Assembly: GCA_002372935.1 (NCBI GenBank)
Contig: DFJF01000006.1
Span: 35,405-99,404 of the forward strand
Length of the DNA stretch: 64,000 bases
Direction of reading: 5' to 3'
Origin: Clostridiales bacterium UBA3678
Lineage (GTDB): Bacteria > Bacillota > Clostridia > TANB77 > CAG-508
In this document: one piece after another, positions 7,535 to 63,106 of the stretch
Position numbering within the stretch: the stretch's first letter is position 1
How the letters are laid out: every line of letters begins with the position of its first letter
Program-made: the position numbers and the translations under genes
The notes under the pieces: model-generated
The model's database searches: none
The model's input: the letters and a program-made list of their open reading frames with translations, nothing else
What the model was told of the DNA's origin: nothing

Positions 7535-7762
7535 AACAAAAAAATAAAAAAACCCCTGCATAGTGCGTGAAGACAGAATTTTTAGAACCTACAAGTTTAA
7601 AGAGGGACCAATCTCTGGATATGGCGTGCAAGCTTACACAGCATTTAATATGACAAATATTGTAGTAAGAAGCCCATAAGTATTTAGGTAGGAACCCACC
7701 TGTTTTAGAGCAGGTTGTTAAAAATTTTGACATAATTTACGGCTAAGGCGGGGATTTTTTTG
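7535..7762 (+). ncRNA. Candidate structured RNA or long leader; class unknown and strand uncertain
   Basis: A GC-enriched island of about 210 nt inside a 585-nt AT-rich intergenic gap. It is bounded by A7CCCC ... GGGGAT7, which could form a closing helix. There is no credible ORF. A promoter-like element lies upstream on the + strand. Confidence 0.25.
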
Positions 7763-10162: not shown

Positions 10163-11422
10163 ATGGCAAAAAAAGTAGCTTTTTTAACATTAGGCTGTAA
10201 AACAAATCAATATGAAACAAATGGAATGATGCAGCAATTTTTAGATGCAGGATACGAAATATGTAATGCAGATGAAGAACCTGATATTTATATAGTAAAT
10301 ACATGTACAGTAACAAATATTGCAGATAGAAAATCAAGACAATCATTAAGAAAAGTGAAAAATAAAAAGGATACAATTGTTATAGCAGTTGGCTGTTATG
10401 CACAAGTTGCAAAAGATACATTACAAAATATGCCAGAAATTGACATTATTTTAGGAAACAAAGAAAAGAAAAATATTATAAAATATATAGAAGACTATGA
10501 AATAAGCAGAAATAAAATAGTTGATGTTGCAAACATCAATATGCAACAAGATTTTGATGAATATGGATGTATTACATATACAGAAAAAGCAAGAACAACA
10601 ATTAAAATTCAAGATGGATGCAATAATTTTTGCTCATATTGCTTAATTCCTTATGCAAGAGGCAGAGTTAGAAGTAGAAATAAAGAAAACATCTTAGAAG
10701 AGGCAAGAAAAATTGCAAATAAAGGAATAAAAGAAATAGTTTTAACAGGAATTCACATTGCATCATATGGAAAAGACTTTAATGAAGAATATGAATTAGT
10801 AGACTTATTAGAAGATTTAAATAAAATTGAAGGTATAGAAAGAATTAGATTAGGGTCACTTGAACCAACAATTATCACAGAAGAGTTTGTGGAAAGGCTT
10901 ACAAAATTAGACAAAATTTGCAATCATTTTCATCTATCTTTACAAAGTGGATGTGATGAAACTTTAAAAAGAATGAATAGAAAATATACAACTAAAGAAT
11001 TTAGAGAAGTTGTAAAAAGATTAAGAGATAATATAAAAGATGTAAATTTAACAACAGATATAATAGTTGGATTTCCAGGAGAAACAGAAGAAGAATTCAA
11101 TACAACTTATGAATTTTTAAAAGAAATAAAATTTTACAAAATGCACATATTTAAATATTCAAAAAGAGATGGAACAATCGCAGCAACAATGCCAAATCAA
11201 ATAGATGGAAATATAGCAGAACAAAGAAGTAAAAAGCTTATAGAGTTATCAGAAAGAAACCAGAAAGAATATGAAAAAAAATATGCAGGTAAGGAAGTTG
11301 AAGTTCTATTCGAAGAAAAACAAGGAGAATATTGGGTTGGACATACAACAAATTATATGCTAGTAAAATATAAATCAAATCAAAATCTCGAAAATAAAAT
11401 TTTAAGTTGCACTTTCAAATAG
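10163..11422 (+). CDS. mtaB: Radical SAM methylthiotransferase, MtaB (YqeV)-like
   Basis: UPF0004 N-terminal domain (FLTLGCKTNQYE), CNNFCSYCLIPYARG radical-SAM cluster motif and a TRAM-like C-terminus. Confidence 0.85.
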   Translation: MAKKVAFLTLGCKTNQYETNGMMQQFLDAGYEICNADEEPDIYIVNTCTVTNIADRKSRQSLRKVKNKKDTIVIAVGCYAQVAKDTLQNMPEIDIILGNKEKKNIIKYIEDYEISRNKIVDVANINMQQDFDEYGCITYTEKARTTIKIQDGCNNFCSYCLIPYARGRVRSRNKENILEEARKIANKGIKEIVLTGIHIASYGKDFNEEYELVDLLEDLNKIEGIERIRLGSLEPTIITEEFVERLTKLDKICNHFHLSLQSGCDETLKRMNRKYTTKEFREVVKRLRDNIKDVNLTTDIIVGFPGETEEEFNTTYEFLKEIKFYKMHIFKYSKRDGTIAATMPNQIDGNIAEQRSKKLIELSERNQKEYEKKYAGKEVEVLFEEKQGEYWVGHTTNYMLVKYKSNQNLENKILSCTFK

Positions 11423-11526
11423 GGACGGTTCTCTTTAAAAAGGGGACGGTTCTTTTTTTAAAAAGAACCGTCCCCTTTCAAAAAAGAACCGTCCCCTTTT
11501 TAAAAAGAACCGTCCCCTTTTGAAAG
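11421..11526. repeat. 21-bp repeat family, site B: 2 forward plus 3 reverse units (large palindrome)
   Basis: agggacggttc and aggggacggttc, then agaaccgtcccc three times. The element overlaps the mtaB stop codon (tttcaaaTAGggacgg). Confidence 0.9.
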
Positions 11527-14831: not shown

Positions 14832-14976
14832 AAGAATTTCCTTTCTTTTGTTACGATTCACAGCTTTAAAGTTTAGATAGTCATGATACAAGAAAGAAGT
14901 TTTATTATTATTCGTAACACAATATATTCAAAATTTTTATATAATTATACCACATATGTCAATAGATAAAAATTAA

Positions 14977-15017
14977 ATATTACAAAAATATTACAAAAAT
15001 ATTACGCCAATATTAAA
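14977..15017 (+). promoter_or_regulatory. Four 11-bp-phased ATATTACA-like repeats upstream of the Tad-like locus
   Basis: ATATTACA at 14977 and 14988, ATATTACG at 14999 and ATATTAAA at 15010. The same arrangement is seen at 38332-38372. Confidence 0.6.
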
Positions 15018-15041
15018 TTTAACAAATAAAATAATTATTTG

Positions 15042-15070
15042 TTGATTTTAGAAAAAAAATGTTGTAAAAT
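15042..15070 (+). promoter_or_regulatory. Promoter of the Tad-like locus
   Basis: TTGATT-17-TAAAAT. The spacer ttagaaaaaaaatgttg is almost identical to the one at 38377-38405. Confidence 0.6.
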
Positions 15071-15106
15071 TAAATAGAATATAAAAATATCGAGGAGGAA
15101 TTCAAT

Positions 15107-16279
15107 ATGGCAACCAATCCAATGCAAAGAAAATCAAGAATATCATTTTTATTAGGAATGTTATTAATGCTGATAATAGCAGCATTAGTAATAGCATTAT
15201 TATATATGAAAATACAAGAGAAAGAAAAAGAAATAAAAACTTATCAGCAATCAACATTATATGCTTATGTTCTAAGCCAGGATGTTAAATCAGGACAAGC
15301 ATTAACACCAGAAATGTTTTCACTTCAACAAGTTTCTAAATCAGCAGTACCTGCAGATGCTTCAGGAAATATAACAACAATTTTAGAAGCATATAAATTA
15401 ACTGATAAAGAAGGAAGACAAATATATTTAAAGTCAGATGCTAGTGAAAATGCACAATATTATTACTATATGATAGGCAATAAAGAACATCAAATTTATA
15501 CAGAAGGAAATGTTTTAGCTACAGCTTTAAAAGCTGGAGATTCGGCTTATTTTTATGCTGGAGACAATAATACAGAAAGAACAGATGTAATAATTTCAGA
15601 AAATGCTGTAGTAGCAAAAGTAGATATGAATAAAAATACAATAATTACTAGAAACCTTATTTCAAGAGGGGGAGAAGCAACTACAAATGATTTAAGAAAG
15701 GCAGAATATAATGTTATAGATTTGCCAGTTGATTTAGCACCAGATGAATATGTAGATATAAGATTTACATTACCTACAGGAGAAGATTATATAGTTGCAT
15801 CTAAAAAGCAAGTTTCAATACCAGTAGTAGATGGCGTATATTCAACAGATACAATTCAAATGAAATTAAATGAGAGTGAAATTATGTGTATGTCATGTGC
15901 AATAGTAGAAAATTATAAAATACCAGGATCAAAATTATATGCAGTAAGATATTCAGATGCAGGAATACAAGATGCTGCAACTACAACATATATTCCAAGT
16001 ACATCAGTAGTTAATTTGATAAAAACTGATCCAAATGTTGTAAATAGTGCAATAAAAGCATTAAGAGAACCAAGAAAACCTGAAATAGACAATGCACTAA
16101 ATGCAAATAGTGAAGATGCTTCAGATAATATATCTGAAGGAAGTACAAATAGCAAAGAATCTGCAAAAGAGCAAAGAAAGTTGTATTTACAATCATTGCC
16201 TGCAACAACATCTTCAACAACAACATCTTCAGCAACTACATCAGCAACTACATCAGCAACAACATCAACATCAAATTAA
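15107..16279 (+). CDS. CpaB/RcpC-like pilus assembly protein (N-terminal TM, SAF-like domain, Thr/Ser-rich tail)
   Basis: TM segment ISFLLGMLLMLIIAALVIALLY, then a SAF-like YAYVLSQDVKSGQALTPEMFSLQQVSKSAVPADA. The C-terminus is TTSSTTTSSATTSATTSATTSTSN. Confidence 0.55.
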   Translation: MATNPMQRKSRISFLLGMLLMLIIAALVIALLYMKIQEKEKEIKTYQQSTLYAYVLSQDVKSGQALTPEMFSLQQVSKSAVPADASGNITTILEAYKLTDKEGRQIYLKSDASENAQYYYYMIGNKEHQIYTEGNVLATALKAGDSAYFYAGDNNTERTDVIISENAVVAKVDMNKNTIITRNLISRGGEATTNDLRKAEYNVIDLPVDLAPDEYVDIRFTLPTGEDYIVASKKQVSIPVVDGVYSTDTIQMKLNESEIMCMSCAIVENYKIPGSKLYAVRYSDAGIQDAATTTYIPSTSVVNLIKTDPNVVNSAIKALREPRKPEIDNALNANSEDASDNISEGSTNSKESAKEQRKLYLQSLPATTSSTTTSSATTSATTSATTSTSN

Positions 16280-17850: not shown

Positions 17851-17875
17851 AAAAATATTGAAAGGAAGTTCGGAA

Positions 17876-30417: not shown

Positions 30418-30978
30418 CTAAATTTCTAATTGACTTCCAAGGAAGTTTGCAGCAGATTGTGCTACTTTTTTTTCAACTTCATTCATTTTTGTGTTAGCTT
30501 GTTTAGAAAGCAAAATAACTGTACCAATTGTATCTCCATTAGATATAATTGGATACACAATTTGAGAATTATACCTTTTTTCTTTGTTATCTTTGTCATG
30601 TTCAGTTATAGGCAAAGCAATATCACTATTTTCTTTGCTAGTATAAACTTCTTTGTCTTCCATAAGCTGTTCTAATTCATCACTTACATTTTGCTCCAAA
30701 TAATCTTTTTTTGGTCCACCAGATACAGCAATTACAGTATCTTTATCTGTTATAAAAGCTATATGACCAGTAGTTTTTGCTAATGTTTCTGCATATCCAG
30801 TTGCAAATTCTGAAAGCTCACCAATAGGGGAATATTTTCGCAAAATAATACTACCTTCTTTTTCTGTGAAAATTTCAAGAGGATCGCCTTCTTTAATACG
30901 AAGTGTTTTTCTTATTTCCTTTGGAATAACAATTCTTCCTAAATCATCTATTCTTCTAACAACACCAGTTGCTTTCAT
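30418..30978 (-). CDS. spoVT: Stage V sporulation protein T (AbrB-type N-terminal domain plus GAF-like domain)
   Basis: MKATGVVRRIDDLGRIVIPKEIRKTLRIKEGDPLEIF; the 186-aa length is typical of SpoVT. Confidence 0.9.
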   Translation of the reverse strand: MKATGVVRRIDDLGRIVIPKEIRKTLRIKEGDPLEIFTEKEGSIILRKYSPIGELSEFATGYAETLAKTTGHIAFITDKDTVIAVSGGPKKDYLEQNVSDELEQLMEDKEVYTSKENSDIALPITEHDKDNKEKRYNSQIVYPIISNGDTIGTVILLSKQANTKMNEVEKKVAQSAANFLGSQLEI

Positions 30979-31106: not shown

Positions 31107-31245
31107 GGGGACGGTTCTTTTTCAGAAGGGGACGGTTCTTTTTTGAAAAGGGACGGTTCTTTTTTGAAAAGGGACGGTTCTTTTTTGAAAGGGGACGGTT
31201 CTTTTTTGAAAAGGGACGGTTCTTTTTTGAAAGTGGAACTGTACA
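31107..31245. repeat. 21-bp repeat family, site C: 6 in-phase direct units plus 1 degenerate unit
   Basis: Unit starts (aligned to the GGGG core, as read in my indexing) at 31107, 31128, 31149, 31170, 31191 and 31212, with a degenerate gtggaactgtac at 31233. The array lies in the divergent region between spoVT and the 31408 gene. Confidence 0.92.
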
Positions 31246-34436: not shown

Positions 34437-34465
34437 TTGATAAAATACAATAAATGTAATATAAT
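34437..34465 (+). promoter_or_regulatory. Sigma-A-type promoter for mreB
   Basis: TTGATA-17-TATAAT. Confidence 0.5.
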
Positions 34466-34529
34466 TGTAACGAAAATGTAATAAAAGTGTAAAAGAAAAG
34501 ATATAATAATAACAAGGGAGAAGATTAGC

Positions 34530-35546
34530 ATGTTTAAATTTGGAATAGGACAAGATATTGGAATAGATTTAGGTACAGCTACAGTTATAGCTTATGTTAA
34601 AGGTAAGGGTATTGTTCTTAGAGAACCATCTGTAGTAGCAATAGACAATAATACTGGAGAAGTTGTTGCAGTTGGTGGAGAAGCACAAAGAATGCTTGGT
34701 AGAACACCAGGAAATATAGTAGCAACAAGACCTTTAAGAGAAGGTGTAATTTCAGATTACACAGTTACAGAAAAAATGTTAAAGTATTTTATAAATAAAG
34801 TAGGAGCAAAAAGTATATTTGCACCTAGAATTATGATATGTATTCCATCAAGAGTTACAGAAGTAGAAAAAAAAGCTGTAATAGATGCTGCAACAGAAGC
34901 TGGAGCAAGGAAGGTTTATCTTATAGAAGAGCCAATAGCTGCAGCAATTGGTGCTGGAATAGACATATCAAAACCATGTGGAAATATGGTAGTAGATATA
35001 GGAGGAGGAACAACAGATATTGCAGTTATATCATTAGGTGGGTCTGTTGTTAGTACATCAATAAAAGTAGCAGGAGACAAATTTGACGAATATGTTGCAA
35101 AATATATCAAGAAAAAACACAATGTTGTAATTGGAGAAAGGACATCAGAAGAATTAAAAAAGAATATTGGATGTGTATATCCAAAAATTCAAGATGTAGA
35201 AATGGATGTTAGAGGTCGTGATTTAATTTCAGGCCTACCAGTTACAATATCAATACATTCTAGTGAGATGTTAGAAGCTTTAGAAGAACCAGCAAACATG
35301 ATAGTAGATGCTGTACATTCCGTTTTAGAAAAGACGCCACCAGAGCTAGCAGCAGACATTAGTGACAGAGGTATATATATGACAGGTGGAGGAGCATTAA
35401 TCGATGGGCTTGATAAGTTGCTTCAAGAAAAAACAGGAATAAATGTAATGATAGCACAAGACACAGTATCATGTGTTGCACTTGGTACAGGAAAAGCATT
35501 AGATAACCTAGATGCACTAGACGAAAAAGAAAGAAAAAAATTATAA
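34530..35546 (+). CDS. mreB: Rod shape-determining actin homologue, MreB/Mbl family
   Basis: IGIDLGTATVIAYVKGKGIVLREPSVVA, DIGGGTTDIAVISLGG and MTGGGALIDGLDKLL. Confidence 0.93.
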   Translation: MFKFGIGQDIGIDLGTATVIAYVKGKGIVLREPSVVAIDNNTGEVVAVGGEAQRMLGRTPGNIVATRPLREGVISDYTVTEKMLKYFINKVGAKSIFAPRIMICIPSRVTEVEKKAVIDAATEAGARKVYLIEEPIAAAIGAGIDISKPCGNMVVDIGGGTTDIAVISLGGSVVSTSIKVAGDKFDEYVAKYIKKKHNVVIGERTSEELKKNIGCVYPKIQDVEMDVRGRDLISGLPVTISIHSSEMLEALEEPANMIVDAVHSVLEKTPPELAADISDRGIYMTGGGALIDGLDKLLQEKTGINVMIAQDTVSCVALGTGKALDNLDALDEKERKKL

Positions 35547-35616
35547 TTTTCAGAAGGGGACGGTTCTTTTTATGAAGGGGACGGTTCTTTTTTGAAAGAG
35601 AACCGTCCCAATTTTA
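35547..35616. repeat. 21-bp repeat family, site D: 2 forward plus 1 reverse unit (terminator-like hairpin)
   Basis: ggggacggttc twice, then gagaaccgtccc, starting directly after the mreB stop. Confidence 0.85.
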
Positions 35617-36980: not shown

Positions 36981-37040
36981 AGTGAGATAAATAATGGGAT
37001 TTATGTACTTGAAAAAATAAAACAATAGTAGTATAATGAA

Positions 37041-37155
37041 TTTCAAAGAGGGACGGTTCTCTTTTGAAAAAGAACCGTCCCCTTTCAAAAAAGAACCGTC
37101 CCTTTCTGAAAAAGAACCGTCCCTTTCTGAAAGAGAACCGTCCCCAAATGAAAGA
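37041..37155. repeat. 21-bp repeat family, site E: 1 forward plus 4 reverse units, ending in AAATGAAAG
   Basis: gagggacggttc, then agaaccgtccc four times at 21-bp spacing, then caaatgaaagaagagagg. Confidence 0.9.
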
Positions 37156-37170
37156 AGAGAGGAAATAGAA

Positions 37171-38262
37171 ATGAAAATAGGAATAGTTGGATTACCAAAT
37201 GTAGGAAAAAGTACATTATTTAATAGTATAACAAAAGCAGGTGCTGAGTGTGCAAATTATCCTTTTTGTACTATAGAGCCTAATGTGGGTGTTGTTGCTG
37301 TGCCAGATGAGAGATTAGATAAATTAACTGAGATGTATCATCCACAAAAAACTAGTCATGCAATTGTGGAGTTTGTTGATATTGCAGGTCTTGTAAAAGG
37401 TGCTAGTAAAGGCGAAGGTCTTGGAAATAAGTTTTTATCTCACATAAGAGAAACAGATGCAATATGTGAGGTTGTTAGATGTTTTGAAGATTCAAATATC
37501 ACACATGTTGATGGAAGTGTTGATCCAATAAGAGATATAGAGACTATAAATTTTGAACTTATTTTTGCTGATATTGAAACTATTGATAAAAGATTAGATA
37601 GAGCTAAAAAAATGCTTAAAGCTGATAAAAAATATCAATTGGAAATTGATTTATTGGAAAAAATTAAGATTAATCTAGAAAATGGAGTTCCTGCAAGAAG
37701 TTTGGAATATTCTGATGAGGAATTGCCTATTGTGAAAGATTTGTGGCTTTTGTCTTCAAAACCAGTTTTATATGTTGTAAATATTTCAGAAGATCAATTA
37801 AATACATGGAAAGATGATGAGATGGTAAAAAAAGTTCAAGAATATGCTAAAAAAGAAGGCTCAGATATTGTTCCTTTATGTGTAAAAATTGAAGAAGAAA
37901 TATCTGCTTTAGACGATAGTGACAAAAAAGAAATGTTAGAAGCTTTAGGATTAGAAGAATCAGGGCTAGATAAACTCATAAAAAAGAGTTATGATTTGCT
38001 TGGATTGATGTCATTTTTGACAGCTGGAGAGCCAGAAGTAAGAGCTTGGACAATAAAGAAAGGAACTAAAGCTCCAGAAGCTGCGGGTAAAATTCATTCA
38101 GATATACAAAGAGGATTTATAAAGGCAGAAGTTGTTTCTTTTGATGATTTGATGAATTGTGGATCTATGGTAGAGGCTAAAGAAAAAGGACTTGTTCGCT
38201 CAGAAGGAAAAGATTATATAATGCAAGATGGAGATATAGTATTATTCAAATTTAATGTGTAG
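37171..38262 (+). CDS. ychF: Ribosome-binding ATPase YchF (Obg-like)
   Basis: MKIGIVGLPNVGKSTLFN, CTIEPNVG and DIAGLVKGAS, with a TGS-type C-terminus. The track ORF start at 37036 only translates the repeats (KEPSPF), so the start is moved to 37171. Confidence 0.92.
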   Translation: MKIGIVGLPNVGKSTLFNSITKAGAECANYPFCTIEPNVGVVAVPDERLDKLTEMYHPQKTSHAIVEFVDIAGLVKGASKGEGLGNKFLSHIRETDAICEVVRCFEDSNITHVDGSVDPIRDIETINFELIFADIETIDKRLDRAKKMLKADKKYQLEIDLLEKIKINLENGVPARSLEYSDEELPIVKDLWLLSSKPVLYVVNISEDQLNTWKDDEMVKKVQEYAKKEGSDIVPLCVKIEEEISALDDSDKKEMLEALGLEESGLDKLIKKSYDLLGLMSFLTAGEPEVRAWTIKKGTKAPEAAGKIHSDIQRGFIKAEVVSFDDLMNCGSMVEAKEKGLVRSEGKDYIMQDGDIVLFKFNV

Positions 38263-38331: not shown

Positions 38332-38372
38332 ATATTACAAAAATATTACAGTTACATTACAATTATGTTAAA
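38332..38372 (+). promoter_or_regulatory. Four 11-bp-phased ATATTACA-like repeats upstream of the type IV pilus cluster
   Basis: ATATTACA at 38332 and 38343, ACATTACA at 38354 and ATGTTAAA at 38365. Confidence 0.6.
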
Positions 38373-38376
38373 TGTA

Positions 38377-38405
38377 TTGATTTTTAGAATAAAAATGTTT
38401 AAAAT
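38377..38405 (+). promoter_or_regulatory. Promoter of the type IV pilus cluster
   Basis: TTGATT-17-TAAAAT. The spacer tttagaataaaaatgtt is near-identical to the one at 15042-15070. Confidence 0.6.
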
Positions 38406-38471: not shown

Positions 38472-40085
38472 ATGCGAAAATGCTTAGGAATATATATAGA
38501 AAGTAACATAATTAAATATGCACTTGTTTCTGAAAATCACAATGAGATGAAGATTGAAGCTTTTGGAATTAGATTTTTTGAAAATTTTTCATCTGAACTA
38601 AGCAAGGTTATAGAAGAGACTTATAGTTTTAACACGCCTATTAGTATAAATATTGCAAATGAAAAATATTTGTATTTTGATGTTTTTGCATTATTAAACA
38701 AAAAAGATATAGAAAAAACAATACAAACAGAATTTGAAACATACTGTGATGAAAATAAATATAATGTTAATGCATTTGTAGAAAAACATACATTAATGCC
38801 AAAAAAAGATGATGATGAAAAAATAAGAGTAATAGATGCATATATAAATAAGATTGAATTAGACAGGCAGACAGAGCCATTTAAAAAATACAGATTGAGT
38901 TTTGCAACACCTATATCTATAGCAATTGCAAATATTGCAAGACTAAACAAAAAAGAAAACCAAATTATTGTTAATATGGAAGAAAGCACAATTATAACAA
39001 CGATTTATGATAATCAAATTTATAACATTGATACTCTTGAAATAGGAAGCAGAGAAGTATTAAGCAATATTAACAAGTTAGAGAATTCTTATTCAAAAGC
39101 ATACGAAATTTGCAAAAACACAACGATTTATACTGCTGATGTAGATGAAACTAGTGAAGAACAACCTTATTTGCAATATATTGTACCTGTAATATATAAA
39201 ATTGTACAGGAAATACAAGGAATTGTTGCAAATACAGCTACAAATTTTAAAACAATATATTTAACAGGAACTCTTGCCTCAATAAATAATATAGATTTAT
39301 ATTTTCAAGAATTTTTTACCAATGTTGAATGTAAAATTTTAAAACCAAATATTGTTGATGAAACAGTAACCAAAATAAATATAAAAGATTATATAGAAGC
39401 AAATTCAGCTATTGCTTTAGCTACTGCAGGACTTGGAAGAGGATTACAAGAATTCAATTTTGGACAACTAGAGGCTTCAAGTAAATTAGCTAAATTTTTG
39501 ACTATTCAGTTACCAAATGGAAAGGAAATTGTGCCAAAAACTAATTTTAAATTAAATAAAGACTTTAAAGATCCTTTATCAAATGGTGAATTAAGAATTG
39601 TAAGAAGTATAGTTGCTGTTTTATTAATATTAATTATTTTTATAGCATTTTCAAAATTATTATCAATTCAAATGCTTGAAAAAGAAGATGAAATAAATAA
39701 CTCAATTTTAAGCCAAAATGCACAAATAACAACTGCAAATTCTGATAAGTCTTCTCTGGATTCGAAAAATCAAAAATATCAACAATTAATTAGTGATATG
39801 AAAAAGACAAATGAAAGGTTAAGTGATATTGCATCAAGTAGAAATTCAATACCAAATTTGTTAAATCAAATAATGTATGTAATACCAGAAAGTGTGCAAT
39901 TGATTTCTATAGATAATGATTCAGACAAAAACATTACAATCCAAGCACAATCATCAGATTATGAACAAATAGGAATCTTTGTTGCTACATTAAGAACTAA
40001 AGGAATATTAAAAAATGTAGCATCTTCAAAAGGTACAAAAAGTAATGGTATAATAACAGTAACAATAGAAGGAGAATTGCCATGA
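38472..40085 (+). CDS. pilM: Type IV pilus assembly protein, PilM-PilN fusion
   Basis: Actin-like ATPase N-terminus (CLGIYIESNIIKYALV), a central TM segment (IVRSIVAVLLILIIFIAF) and a PilN-like C-terminal part. This fusion is typical of Clostridium T4P clusters. Confidence 0.7.
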   Translation: MRKCLGIYIESNIIKYALVSENHNEMKIEAFGIRFFENFSSELSKVIEETYSFNTPISINIANEKYLYFDVFALLNKKDIEKTIQTEFETYCDENKYNVNAFVEKHTLMPKKDDDEKIRVIDAYINKIELDRQTEPFKKYRLSFATPISIAIANIARLNKKENQIIVNMEESTIITTIYDNQIYNIDTLEIGSREVLSNINKLENSYSKAYEICKNTTIYTADVDETSEEQPYLQYIVPVIYKIVQEIQGIVANTATNFKTIYLTGTLASINNIDLYFQEFFTNVECKILKPNIVDETVTKINIKDYIEANSAIALATAGLGRGLQEFNFGQLEASSKLAKFLTIQLPNGKEIVPKTNFKLNKDFKDPLSNGELRIVRSIVAVLLILIIFIAFSKLLSIQMLEKEDEINNSILSQNAQITTANSDKSSLDSKNQKYQQLISDMKKTNERLSDIASSRNSIPNLLNQIMYVIPESVQLISIDNDSDKNITIQAQSSDYEQIGIFVATLRTKGILKNVASSKGTKSNGIITVTIEGELP

Positions 40086-41950: not shown

Positions 41951-42000
41951 GTGGAAGATCTATTACTCTTTGAAAAGAGAACCGTCCCTAAATGAAAGGA
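41951..42000. repeat. 21-bp repeat family, site G: degenerate forward (GATCT variant) plus 1 reverse unit, ending in AAATGAAAGG
   Basis: gtggaagatctattactctttgaaaagagaaccgtccctaaatgaaagga. Confidence 0.75.
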
Positions 42001-50610: not shown

Positions 50611-50700
50611 TTTCAAAAAGGGACGGTTCTCTTTCAAAAGGGGACGGTTCTCTTTCAAAAAGGGACGGTTCTTTTTCAAAAAAGAACCGTCCCCAAATGA
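50611..50700. repeat. 21-bp repeat family, site H: 3 forward plus 1 reverse unit
   Basis: agggacggttc, ggggacggttc and agggacggttc, then agaaccgtcccc. It begins right after the ftsK stop. Confidence 0.9.
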
Positions 50701-61850: not shown

Positions 61851-61930
61851 CACTTTCAAAAGGGGACGGTTCTTTTTTGAAAGAGAACCGTCCCCTTCTG
61901 AAAAAGAACCGTCCCTAAATGAAAGAAGGA
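61851..61930. repeat. 21-bp repeat family, site I: 1 forward plus 2 reverse units between sufB and sufD
   Basis: cactttcaaaaggggacggttcttttttgaaagagaaccgtccccttctgaaaaagaaccgtccctaaatgaaagaagga. Confidence 0.9.
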
Positions 61931-63001: not shown

Positions 63002-63106
63002 TTTCATTTCAGAAGGGGACGGTTCTTTTTCAGAAGGGGACGGTTCTCTTTCAAAAAAGAACCGTCCCCTTCTGAAAAAGAACCGTCCCTAAATGAAAGA
63101 AAGGAG
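63002..63106. repeat. 21-bp repeat family, site J: 2 forward plus 2 reverse units bounded by TTTCATTT / AAATGAAA, between sufD and sufS
   Basis: tttcatttcagaaggggacggttc... ggggacggttc ... agaaccgtcccc ... agaaccgtccctaaatgaaagaaaggag. Confidence 0.92.

Follow-up and report, generated by a model that had tools for sequence, protein, structure and literature searches.

Phased TTACA box arrays at two pilus operons and at mreB in a Clostridia genome: probable tandem sites for an OmpR/PhoB-family response regulator

Except in a few pathogens, little has been learned about the control of type IV and Tad-like pili in Clostridia. A 64,000-nt stretch of Clostridiales bacterium UBA3678 (GCA_002372935.1, contig DFJF01000006.1, positions 35,405 to 99,404; hereafter the window) holds a Tad-like operon and a type IV pilus operon with the same row of short boxes in front of the same kind of promoter, and thereby raises the question of which factor, if any, these rows serve. 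The window has about 27% GC and belongs to a metagenome-assembled genome (MAG) of an uncultured, spore-forming member of the Clostridia, with SpoVT, SpoIVB, CotJ and dockerin proteins. An earlier reading of the sequence, here called the original prediction, had described four boxes spaced 11 bp apart and a TTGATT-17-TAAAAT promoter at both filament loci, and on re-reading its coordinates, boxes, spacing and promoters were all exact. Judged by the comparisons below, we consider it highly probable that the box rows are real, conserved cis-regulatory sites that bind a protein. That they are tandem sites for a response regulator of the OmpR/PhoB family has, in our estimate, a probability of about 0.75, and WalR (YycF/VicR) itself is somewhat favoured as that regulator.

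Array 1, upstream of the Tad-like operon, consists of the boxes ATATTACA (14977), ATATTACA (14988), ATATTACG (14999) and ATATTAAA (15010), which on the minus strand are direct repeats of TGTAATAT. Tandem Repeats Finder describes positions 14975-15005 as 2.8 perfect tandem copies of AAATATTACAA. Array 2, upstream of the type IV pilus operon, reads ATATTACA (38332), ATATTACA (38343), ACATTACA (38354) and ATGTTAAA (38365). Each array is followed by a putative sigma-A promoter (all coordinates are collected in Table 1). The promoter of the Tad-like operon matches 9 of the 12 consensus positions and is followed by a GAGGAGG ribosome-binding site and an ATG at 15107; the ATG of the type IV pilus operon lies at 38472. 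The extra 20 bp noted before in front of the first of these promoters was recovered as a gap between box 4 and the -35 element of 24 nt in copy 1 vs. 4 nt in copy 2. When the -35/spacer/-10 stretches of the two copies were aligned with one shift of 1 nt, a manual count gave 27 equal columns out of 30. A third array, missed by the original prediction, lies at a gene of the mreB/mbl family; its boxes are the same but inverted with respect to the gene that follows.

The arrays stand out clearly from the base composition of the window. Rows with at least three of four TTAMA boxes at a period of 11 occur at three places, as compared to 0.15 expected, and the maximum reached in 200 order-3 Markov simulations was two. 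Every other period within 6-17 gave 0 or 1 array, the enrichment thus being seen at period 11 only. The two-box pattern (0 or 1 mismatch) was found in the window at the two filament loci only, and no other intergenic region of the window has such an array, so that the boxes are not equally frequent in AT-rich intergenic DNA, a doubt which the original prediction had itself raised. Perfect matches to the consensus of WalR (TGTWAH-N5-TGTWAH) number six in the 64 kb, where 1.7 are expected, and all six lie inside the three arrays. This was also the case for TGTAAYA-N4-TGTAAYA with at most one mismatch, for which all seven matches in the window (0.36 expected) fall in the arrays.

Homologues of the first genes of both operons are abundant in Clostridia MAGs, and four of them show which parts of the upstream regions are kept. 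We compared the pilMN loci L004 and L005 (85% and 63% protein identity) and the loci L006 and L007 (70% and 53%) of the SAF-domain gene that opens the Tad-like operon. In all four, the boxes, the -35 and the -10 are kept together with the linker length (4 nt for pilMN, 24 nt for SAF), while the DNA 5' of the arrays is unrelated among them and the window. The SAF linker is exactly 24 nt in the window, L006 and L007 despite its differing sequence. Among the matches listed in the genome scan described below, array and promoter are also kept in more distant relatives with 30-47% protein identity and diverged flanks, and array 2 has counterparts in L004, L005 and at least nine more distant PilMN loci. 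The likeness of the promoter spacers fades in these more distant relatives. The two upstream regions had been called clearly homologous, which was too strong: the boxes, -35 and -10 alone are kept between species, and near-identical spacers are limited to this genome and its closest relatives. Shared constraint would explain the resemblance of the two promoter regions at least as well as duplication.

The position of the arrays relative to the promoter is quantised. At the scorable loci among the matches listed, 12 arrays end 4 nt before the -35 and seven end 14 nt before it, and a gap of 24 nt was scored twice and is also present in L007. Gaps off this series were 13, 15 and 23 nt (once each) and 6 nt (twice), with outliers of 40, 46 and -32 nt. 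The pilMN promoters come in 4-nt and 14-nt versions and the SAF promoters in 24-nt and 14-nt versions, the 14-nt gap being that of the more distant SAF homologues; the PilMN loci of relatives have TTGAYT-16/17-TAAAAT (TATAAT in L093) placed 4 or 14 nt past the array. Because the gaps step by exactly 10 bp, a requirement for the same face of the helix is indicated, as would be expected of an activator contacting RNA polymerase. The 20-bp difference between the two copies is thus conserved and part of a general 4/14/24-nt series, which is in line with the proposal of an oligomerising factor along one face of the helix. We also considered array 1 as a regulatory site for the divergent NFACT gene and dropped this, since the distance between its TTGACA and the array is 14 nt in the window, 37 nt in L006 and 10 nt in L007 and shows no phase lock.

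At mreB the arrangement is another one. The putative promoter P1 agrees with the consensus at 11 of 12 positions and has its -10 between boxes 1 and 2; array 3 spans roughly -17 to +22. The array is nearly identical in L004 and L005, and mreB arrays were also found in L012, L013 and L053. From the start of the -35 to the end of the array there are 56 nt in the window, L004, L005, L012 and L013 and 45 nt in L053; therefore the array overlaps the mreB core promoter. A second TATAAT (34502-34507) is found 8 nt 3' of the last mreB box, in a geometry like that of arrays in wal operons (see below), where TATAAT follows after 10 nt. This second TATAAT could be an activator-dependent -10. In L012 there is no room for a second TATAAT promoter after the mreB array.

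The arrays are not restricted to the genes of the window. Scanning GTDB genomes for TTACA-N6-TTACA-N6-TTACA-N6-TTAMA gave at least 119 loci in two classes: perfect microsatellites of 11 bp from unrelated phyla, with no bearing on the present question, and at least about 60 arrays that are imperfect, vary in their 3-nt spacers and come from low-GC MAGs named uncultured Clostridia or Clostridium. Although ORFs (open reading frames) make up 82% of the loci concerned, 55 of 62 arrays among the matches listed are intergenic. In the TTACA orientation, arrays lie upstream of pilMN (at least nine loci), the SAF locus (at least three), PrgI-family genes (at least six) and SepF (at least four), and, among the matches listed, of the genes for one pilin-like protein and one FIST protein. 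In the TGTAA orientation they lie near the gene starts of mreB (at least three loci), veg (at least six), nrdD (at least four, about 270 nt away) and two uncharacterised families. Cell-wall hydrolase genes are represented by a Parvimonas glucosaminidase autolysin (L026, TGTAA orientation) and a protein with Hydrolase_2 and PG_binding_1 domains (L056, TTACA orientation). The arrays flanking sepF, veg, nrdD, prgI-family, FIST and hydrolase genes in relatives imply that the factor is a global regulator, and by its gene neighbours the element belongs to a global regulon rather than to a filament-specific one. Co-regulation of the two filament systems by one factor, as put forward originally, is still the best reading, while a module private to the filament loci is not supported, as mreB and the relatives' genes carry arrays too. 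The PrgI-family loci L036, L038, L070, L108, L111 and L116 have a feature of their own: directly 3' of the array is a hairpin with apparently compensatory changes (e.g. GTGCATTTAAAATGCAC), then a T-run, and a TATAAT some 30 nt beyond. This hairpin looks like a terminator or operator between array and promoter.

Several features point to the OmpR/PhoB family. Multi-repeat sites of this family have two or more direct repeats spaced 10-11 bp from centre to centre, and all three arrays of the window fit this with four units at exactly 11 bp; the gap of 4, 14 or 24 nt at most scorable loci agrees with binding to one helical face. The same four-box pattern is also found 5' of pstC-like and PiT phosphate-transporter-like ORFs, recognised by their N-termini only (L083, L087, L090, L098, L103 and L106). 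These loci belong, among the matches listed, to Nitrospirae, Lachnospiraceae, Oscillospiraceae and two unassigned bacteria, with 42-60% GC, and because the pattern occurs there where Pho boxes are expected, it appears to be diagnostic of the OmpR/PhoB family in general.

Within the family, the half-site itself argues for WalR. The consensus of the 62 sites is A-T-A/G-TTACA, on the other strand TGTAAYAT, and it fits WalR TGTWAH-N5-TGTWAH as well as Streptococcus mutans VicR TGTWAHA-N4-TGTWAHA (PMC4168254; PMC9210968). The T two bases before TTACA, corresponding on the other strand to the A at position 7, is present in 74-85% of these sites. This was further supported by arrays inside the wal operon of two cultured Clostridia, Wukongibacter baidiensis (L060) and Clostridiaceae bacterium 35-E11 (L107). 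Here the stop codon of the wal-type kinase gene is directly followed by a TTTAAA/TGTAAT/TGTAAT/TGTAAY array with 11-bp spacing, and a TATAAT comes 10 nt after the array; the spacers differ between the two genera. The response regulator of L060 scores 349 bits, as compared to the NCBIfam YycF equivalog cut-off of 340, and the best model for its kinase is WalK with 563 bits, which is below the 725-bit cut-off. The L107 kinase, known from its domains (HAMP-PAS-HisKA-HATPase), shares the N-terminus of the L060 kinase; the order at this locus is kinase, array, a secreted protein homologous to that of L060, and YycH (PF07435). This suggests a WalR-dependent internal promoter within the wal operon of both. 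Peptidoglycan hydrolase genes are canonical WalR targets, and the WalR-repressed hydrolase gene cd630_27680 of Clostridioides difficile carries two TGTAAT-CTTTT-TGTAAT matches to the WalR consensus. The link to cell-wall and wal genes is seen in relatives (L026, L056, L060 and L107), the genes with arrays in the window itself being the pilus operons and mreB. WalRK is stated to occur in all Firmicutes (PMC9210968).

A number of observations weigh against WalR or limit how far the regulon can be read. To our knowledge, pilus operons are not described as WalR targets. The sites classically ascribed to WalR consist of two half-sites instead of four, hexamers like TGTWAH turn up readily at 27% GC, and other OmpR-family paralogues (PhoP, ResD-like and orphan regulators) recognise very similar repeats. 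Domain searches of the window proteins gave no response-regulator gene in the 64 kb, the only transcription factors being SpoVT (30418-30978, minus strand) and a DtxR-like repressor (59099). Likewise, a receiver-domain regular-expression scan of the low-GC array loci returned the L060 response regulator only, and thus no autoregulated regulator gene beside the arrays of the MAG group. The genome scan demanded perfect TTACA cores, which makes the regulon picture a biased sample, and the TATAAT 8 nt past the mreB array may speak for activation there. Furthermore, the main text of the C. difficile WalRK paper mentions neither pil nor mreB (PMC9210968). Weighing both sides, we still place WalR slightly above even odds.

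Some other candidates were set aside. The adjacency of the spoVT gene was taken as ordinary synteny, as it is also adjacent in L004, and was not used as evidence. The motifs of Spo0A (TGTCGAA), CodY, CcpA, SinR, LytTR-type regulators and NrdR do not match the boxes. A riboswitch or other RNA element was dropped as well: the single match in an Rfam scan of the whole window was 6S RNA, with none at the three array sites, and the arrays at the pilus loci lie 5' of the promoters and would be outside their transcripts.

The alternative that survives best keeps the architecture and changes the protein, to a PhoP-type phosphate regulator or to a lineage-specific or orphan member of the OmpR/PhoB family. 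The Bacillus subtilis PhoP core is four TT(A/T/C)ACA repeats with an 11-bp period, on the coding strand when the gene is activated and on the non-coding strand when it is repressed, and in box number, period and the link of strand and position to the presumed sign of regulation our arrays resemble it. The identical pattern at the presumed Pho boxes of the phosphate-transporter-like ORFs in other phyla is in line with this, and so is a regulon (pili, veg, nrdD, FIST) broader than classical WalR regulons; moreover, the WalR and PhoB consensuses are acknowledged to be very similar (PMC4168254). However, about 85-95% of the boxes have A or G in front of TTACA, and the T needed by the PhoP hexamer is present in 5-15%, so that the B. 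subtilis-type hexamer fails at its first position while the other five positions fit. Among the matches listed, no phosphate-uptake gene lies beside the arrays in the low-GC Clostridia group, whereas arrays are found in wal operons and beside peptidoglycan hydrolase genes. We regard another family member as the leading competitor, albeit an improbable one.

Array 1 also varies between strains. Eight assemblies encode a SAF protein 100% identical to that of the window; four of them have four boxes like the window, three (L127, L129 and L133) are without exactly one ATATTACAAAA unit as compared to positions 14977-14998 and thus have three, and one contig is cut inside the repeat. The remaining intergenic DNA is identical in L127 and L129, and in L133 a nearby deletion removes the divergent TTGACA. 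L007 has three boxes at its SAF locus as well. Evidently, box number is polymorphic in natural populations. This could mean that the tract is a slippage-prone simple sequence, a contingency or phase-variation promoter in which gain and loss of 11-bp units tunes the pili and no dedicated factor takes part, and the first 2.8 units of array 1 being a perfect tandem repeat would agree with it. Most arrays are imperfect, however, and two or three perfect units slip rarely. Since the TTACA core is kept over large evolutionary distances and the 3-nt spacers are not constant (aaa, att, ttt, gtt), selection on the boxes rather than recent expansion is indicated. In addition, an 11-bp change preserves helical phase and alters the number of sites, not the promoter geometry, which fits modulation of a protein site better. 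The polymorphism is consistent with slippage that tunes a protein site and is weak evidence for a phase-variation switch, and we find an array that works by slippage with no factor unlikely.

A protein-independent effect of phased A/T tracts, boosting the promoters as bent DNA or UP elements, is less likely still. Phased A-tracts have been described for the Clostridium perfringens plc promoter, and the DNA here is very AT-rich, has AAAAA runs between the first boxes of arrays 1 and 2, and places these arrays 5' of the -35 at one-turn phasing. Against this, what is conserved is TTACA, its C being invariant, and the spacers alternate between A-rich and T-rich with no fixed A-run; the mreB array lies over and 3' of the -10, and neither the 10-bp quantised position relative to the -35 nor the match to a known protein consensus would be expected. 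Finally, that the resemblance is due to chance in low-complexity AT-rich intergenic DNA or to recent duplication of one promoter, for which the GC content, the commonness of promoter-like hexamer pairs in these regions (4-7 vs. 2.4-3.4 in shuffles) and the narrow range of the spacer similarity might speak, is already refuted as far as sequence analysis allows by the statistics of the arrays (enriched at period 11 only), of the two-box pattern and of the WalR matches, the conservation at three different loci across species, the intergenic bias and the quantised -35 spacing.

Returning to WalR, we propose the following model. A global winged-helix regulator of the OmpR/PhoB family, most probably the lineage's WalR orthologue, would bind the rows of boxes with one half-site (TGTAAYAT on the complementary strand) per 11-bp unit, so that two head-to-tail dimers would fit on four units, on a single helical face. 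At the pilus operons, where the array is 5' of TTGATT-17-TAAAAT with its suboptimal -10, the bound regulator would face RNA polymerase from the same side and activate. At mreB, the inverted array over the -10, the presumed start site and the early transcribed region (a leader of about 20 nt) would block a strong constitutive promoter. The predicted transcription starts lie near 15077 and 38412 for the pilus operons and near 34472 for mreB. We infer these directions, activation of the two pilus operons and repression of mreB P1, from position only. In its widest form, the model has WalRK, an essential two-component system of the cell wall, directly driving the type IV pilus and a very divergent CpaF-type Tad-like system through phase-locked four-box arrays, shutting off an mreB paralogue and touching sepF, veg and nrdD, with box number as a heritable rheostat, throughout a large clade of uncultured low-GC gut Clostridia; this wide form is tentative, and we think it rather doubtful as a whole.

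If true, surface-filament production would be hard-wired to the growth status of the cell wall, and gain or loss of 11-bp boxes would tune this coupling between strains. The arrays offer a testable regulon signature, TGTAAYAT repeats with 11-bp spacing placed 4 + 10n nt from the -35. Through this signature two pilus systems are connected with genes for cell shape and cell division, and probably with WalRK. Should the factor be WalR, its regulon would extend beyond autolysins. The loci also provide a natural series of array-promoter distances and box numbers for studying activation by tandem response-regulator dimers. The practical gain is modest: the result is a regulatory prediction, if a well-supported one, rather than a new mechanism.

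The operons behind the arrays are as follows. The Tad-like operon continues with plus-strand ORFs onward to 30401, with synteny in L006 and L007, and the system is widespread in Clostridia MAGs. Its first gene and its ATPase, which is only distantly related to CpaF and has no relatives of solved structure other than CpaF Tad ATPases, make the label Tad-like a fair one, for a locus that is very divergent. The operon encodes small proteins starting with MENASKALIIAG; in the region 22004-25432, five of six ORFs (22004, 22840, 23787, 24347 and 24791) begin alike, with MENASKA(L/I)I(I/M)AG and then a hydrophobic helix, and no Pfam match was found for these five. They are probably the pilin set of a divergent Tad-like system. 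The type IV pilus operon is a standard one and includes pilin-like proteins.

Separate from the TTACA arrays is another repeated element, GGGACGGTTCT, with 34 occurrences in the window vs. 0.04 expected and an exact spacing of 21 bp. It forms nine tandem intergenic clusters and one lone copy, often in convergent order (+ + - -), and the clusters could fold into long hairpins. The largest, of six tandem units, lies between spoVT and a dockerin-protein gene. The ychF ORF (37036-38262, 408 aa) is longer than that of its relatives (363 aa), and its extra 5' part overlaps the repeat cluster at 37050-37144; the called ychF start is probably too early.

Table 1. Coordinates of arrays, promoters, genes and other features (positions in the window unless a locus is given).
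Feature	Position	Strand	Remarks
Array 1	14977-15017	+	four boxes, 11 bp apart, 5' of Tad-like operon
Array 1 linker	15018-15041	+	24 nt, box 4 to -35; equals 4 nt plus two helical turns
Putative sigma-A promoter, Tad-like operon	15042-15070	+	TTGATT 15042-15047, 17-nt spacer, TAAAAT 15065-15070
First gene, Tad-like operon	15107-16279	+	390-aa SAF-domain protein, CpaB type
Tad-like ATPase	17858-19876	+	672 aa; best solved-structure match CpaF, E = 7.5e-9
mreB/mbl promoter P1 (putative)	34437-34465	+	TTGATA 34437, 17-nt spacer, TATAAT 34460
Array 3	34455-34493	+	TGTAAT 34455, TGTAAC 34466, TGTAAT 34477, TGTAAA 34488; 11 bp apart
mreB/mbl-family actin-like gene	34530-35546	+	PF06723, E = 2e-141
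Array 2	38332-38372	+	four boxes 5' of type IV pilus operon
Putative sigma-A promoter, type IV pilus operon	38377-38405	+	TTGATT 38377-38382, 17-nt spacer, TAAAAT 38400-38405
pilM/pilN fusion gene	38472-40085	+	first gene, type IV pilus operon
Type IV pilus genes downstream	42010, 43842, 45543, 46677		PilD, PilB, PilT, PilC
Wal-operon arrays	L060 1380-1445; L107 6040-6115	-	array and TATAAT between wal-type kinase and secreted-protein genes
6S (SsrS) RNA	7550-7758	+	Rfam RF00013, 85.6 bits
GGGACGGTTCT clusters	1013-1065, 11422-11516, 31108-31223, 35557-35609, 37050-37144, 50620-50693, 61863-61915, 63016-63089		isolated copy at 41978

Taken as a control element, the array is of a familiar kind; unusual are the four boxes, the strict 4 + 10n phasing, pilus operons as targets and the polymorphism in box number. 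It is like the WalR sites of Bacillota in its hexamer, the 5-nt spacer that gives an 11-bp period, the direct repeats and the A at position 7. In related Clostridia, its association with genes for cell-wall hydrolases, cell shape and cell division and with the wal operon would point the same way. It is also like WalR in that sites occur in either orientation and position relative to the promoter would set the sign, as in Staphylococcus aureus, where activation or repression depends on where the site lies and not on its orientation (PMC10746227). It differs from WalR sites by having four (sometimes three or five) half-sites instead of the canonical two and by being phase-locked to the -35, and from the described WalR targets in that the predicted sites here serve a type IV pilus operon and a divergent Tad-like operon.

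Simple-sequence-repeat contingency promoters are known at fimbrial genes of Haemophilus and Neisseria, and with these array 1 shares tandem repeats in a pilus promoter and a unit number that differs between strains. Here, however, the perfect units are two or three, the 11-bp unit keeps the phase, and imperfect copies are conserved across species. The phased A-tracts of C. perfringens plc are similarly AT-rich, phased by one turn and 5' of the -35, but in our arrays a C-containing core is conserved and A-runs are not, and one array overlaps the core promoter. The multi-repeat sites of the OmpR/PhoB family serve for activation as well as repression, depending on their position. Among the sites of Escherichia coli ArcA, those with 3-5 direct repeats and 11-bp centre-to-centre spacing are in the majority (PMC3798270), Streptomyces PhoP has 11-nt direct repeat units (PMC2275107), and together with B. 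subtilis PhoP these systems share with our arrays the 3-5 direct repeats one turn apart and a TGTnA/TnACA core. The half-site separates our arrays from ArcA (TGTTA) and from B. subtilis PhoP, whose first T is missing here, and the organism and target genes differ as well.

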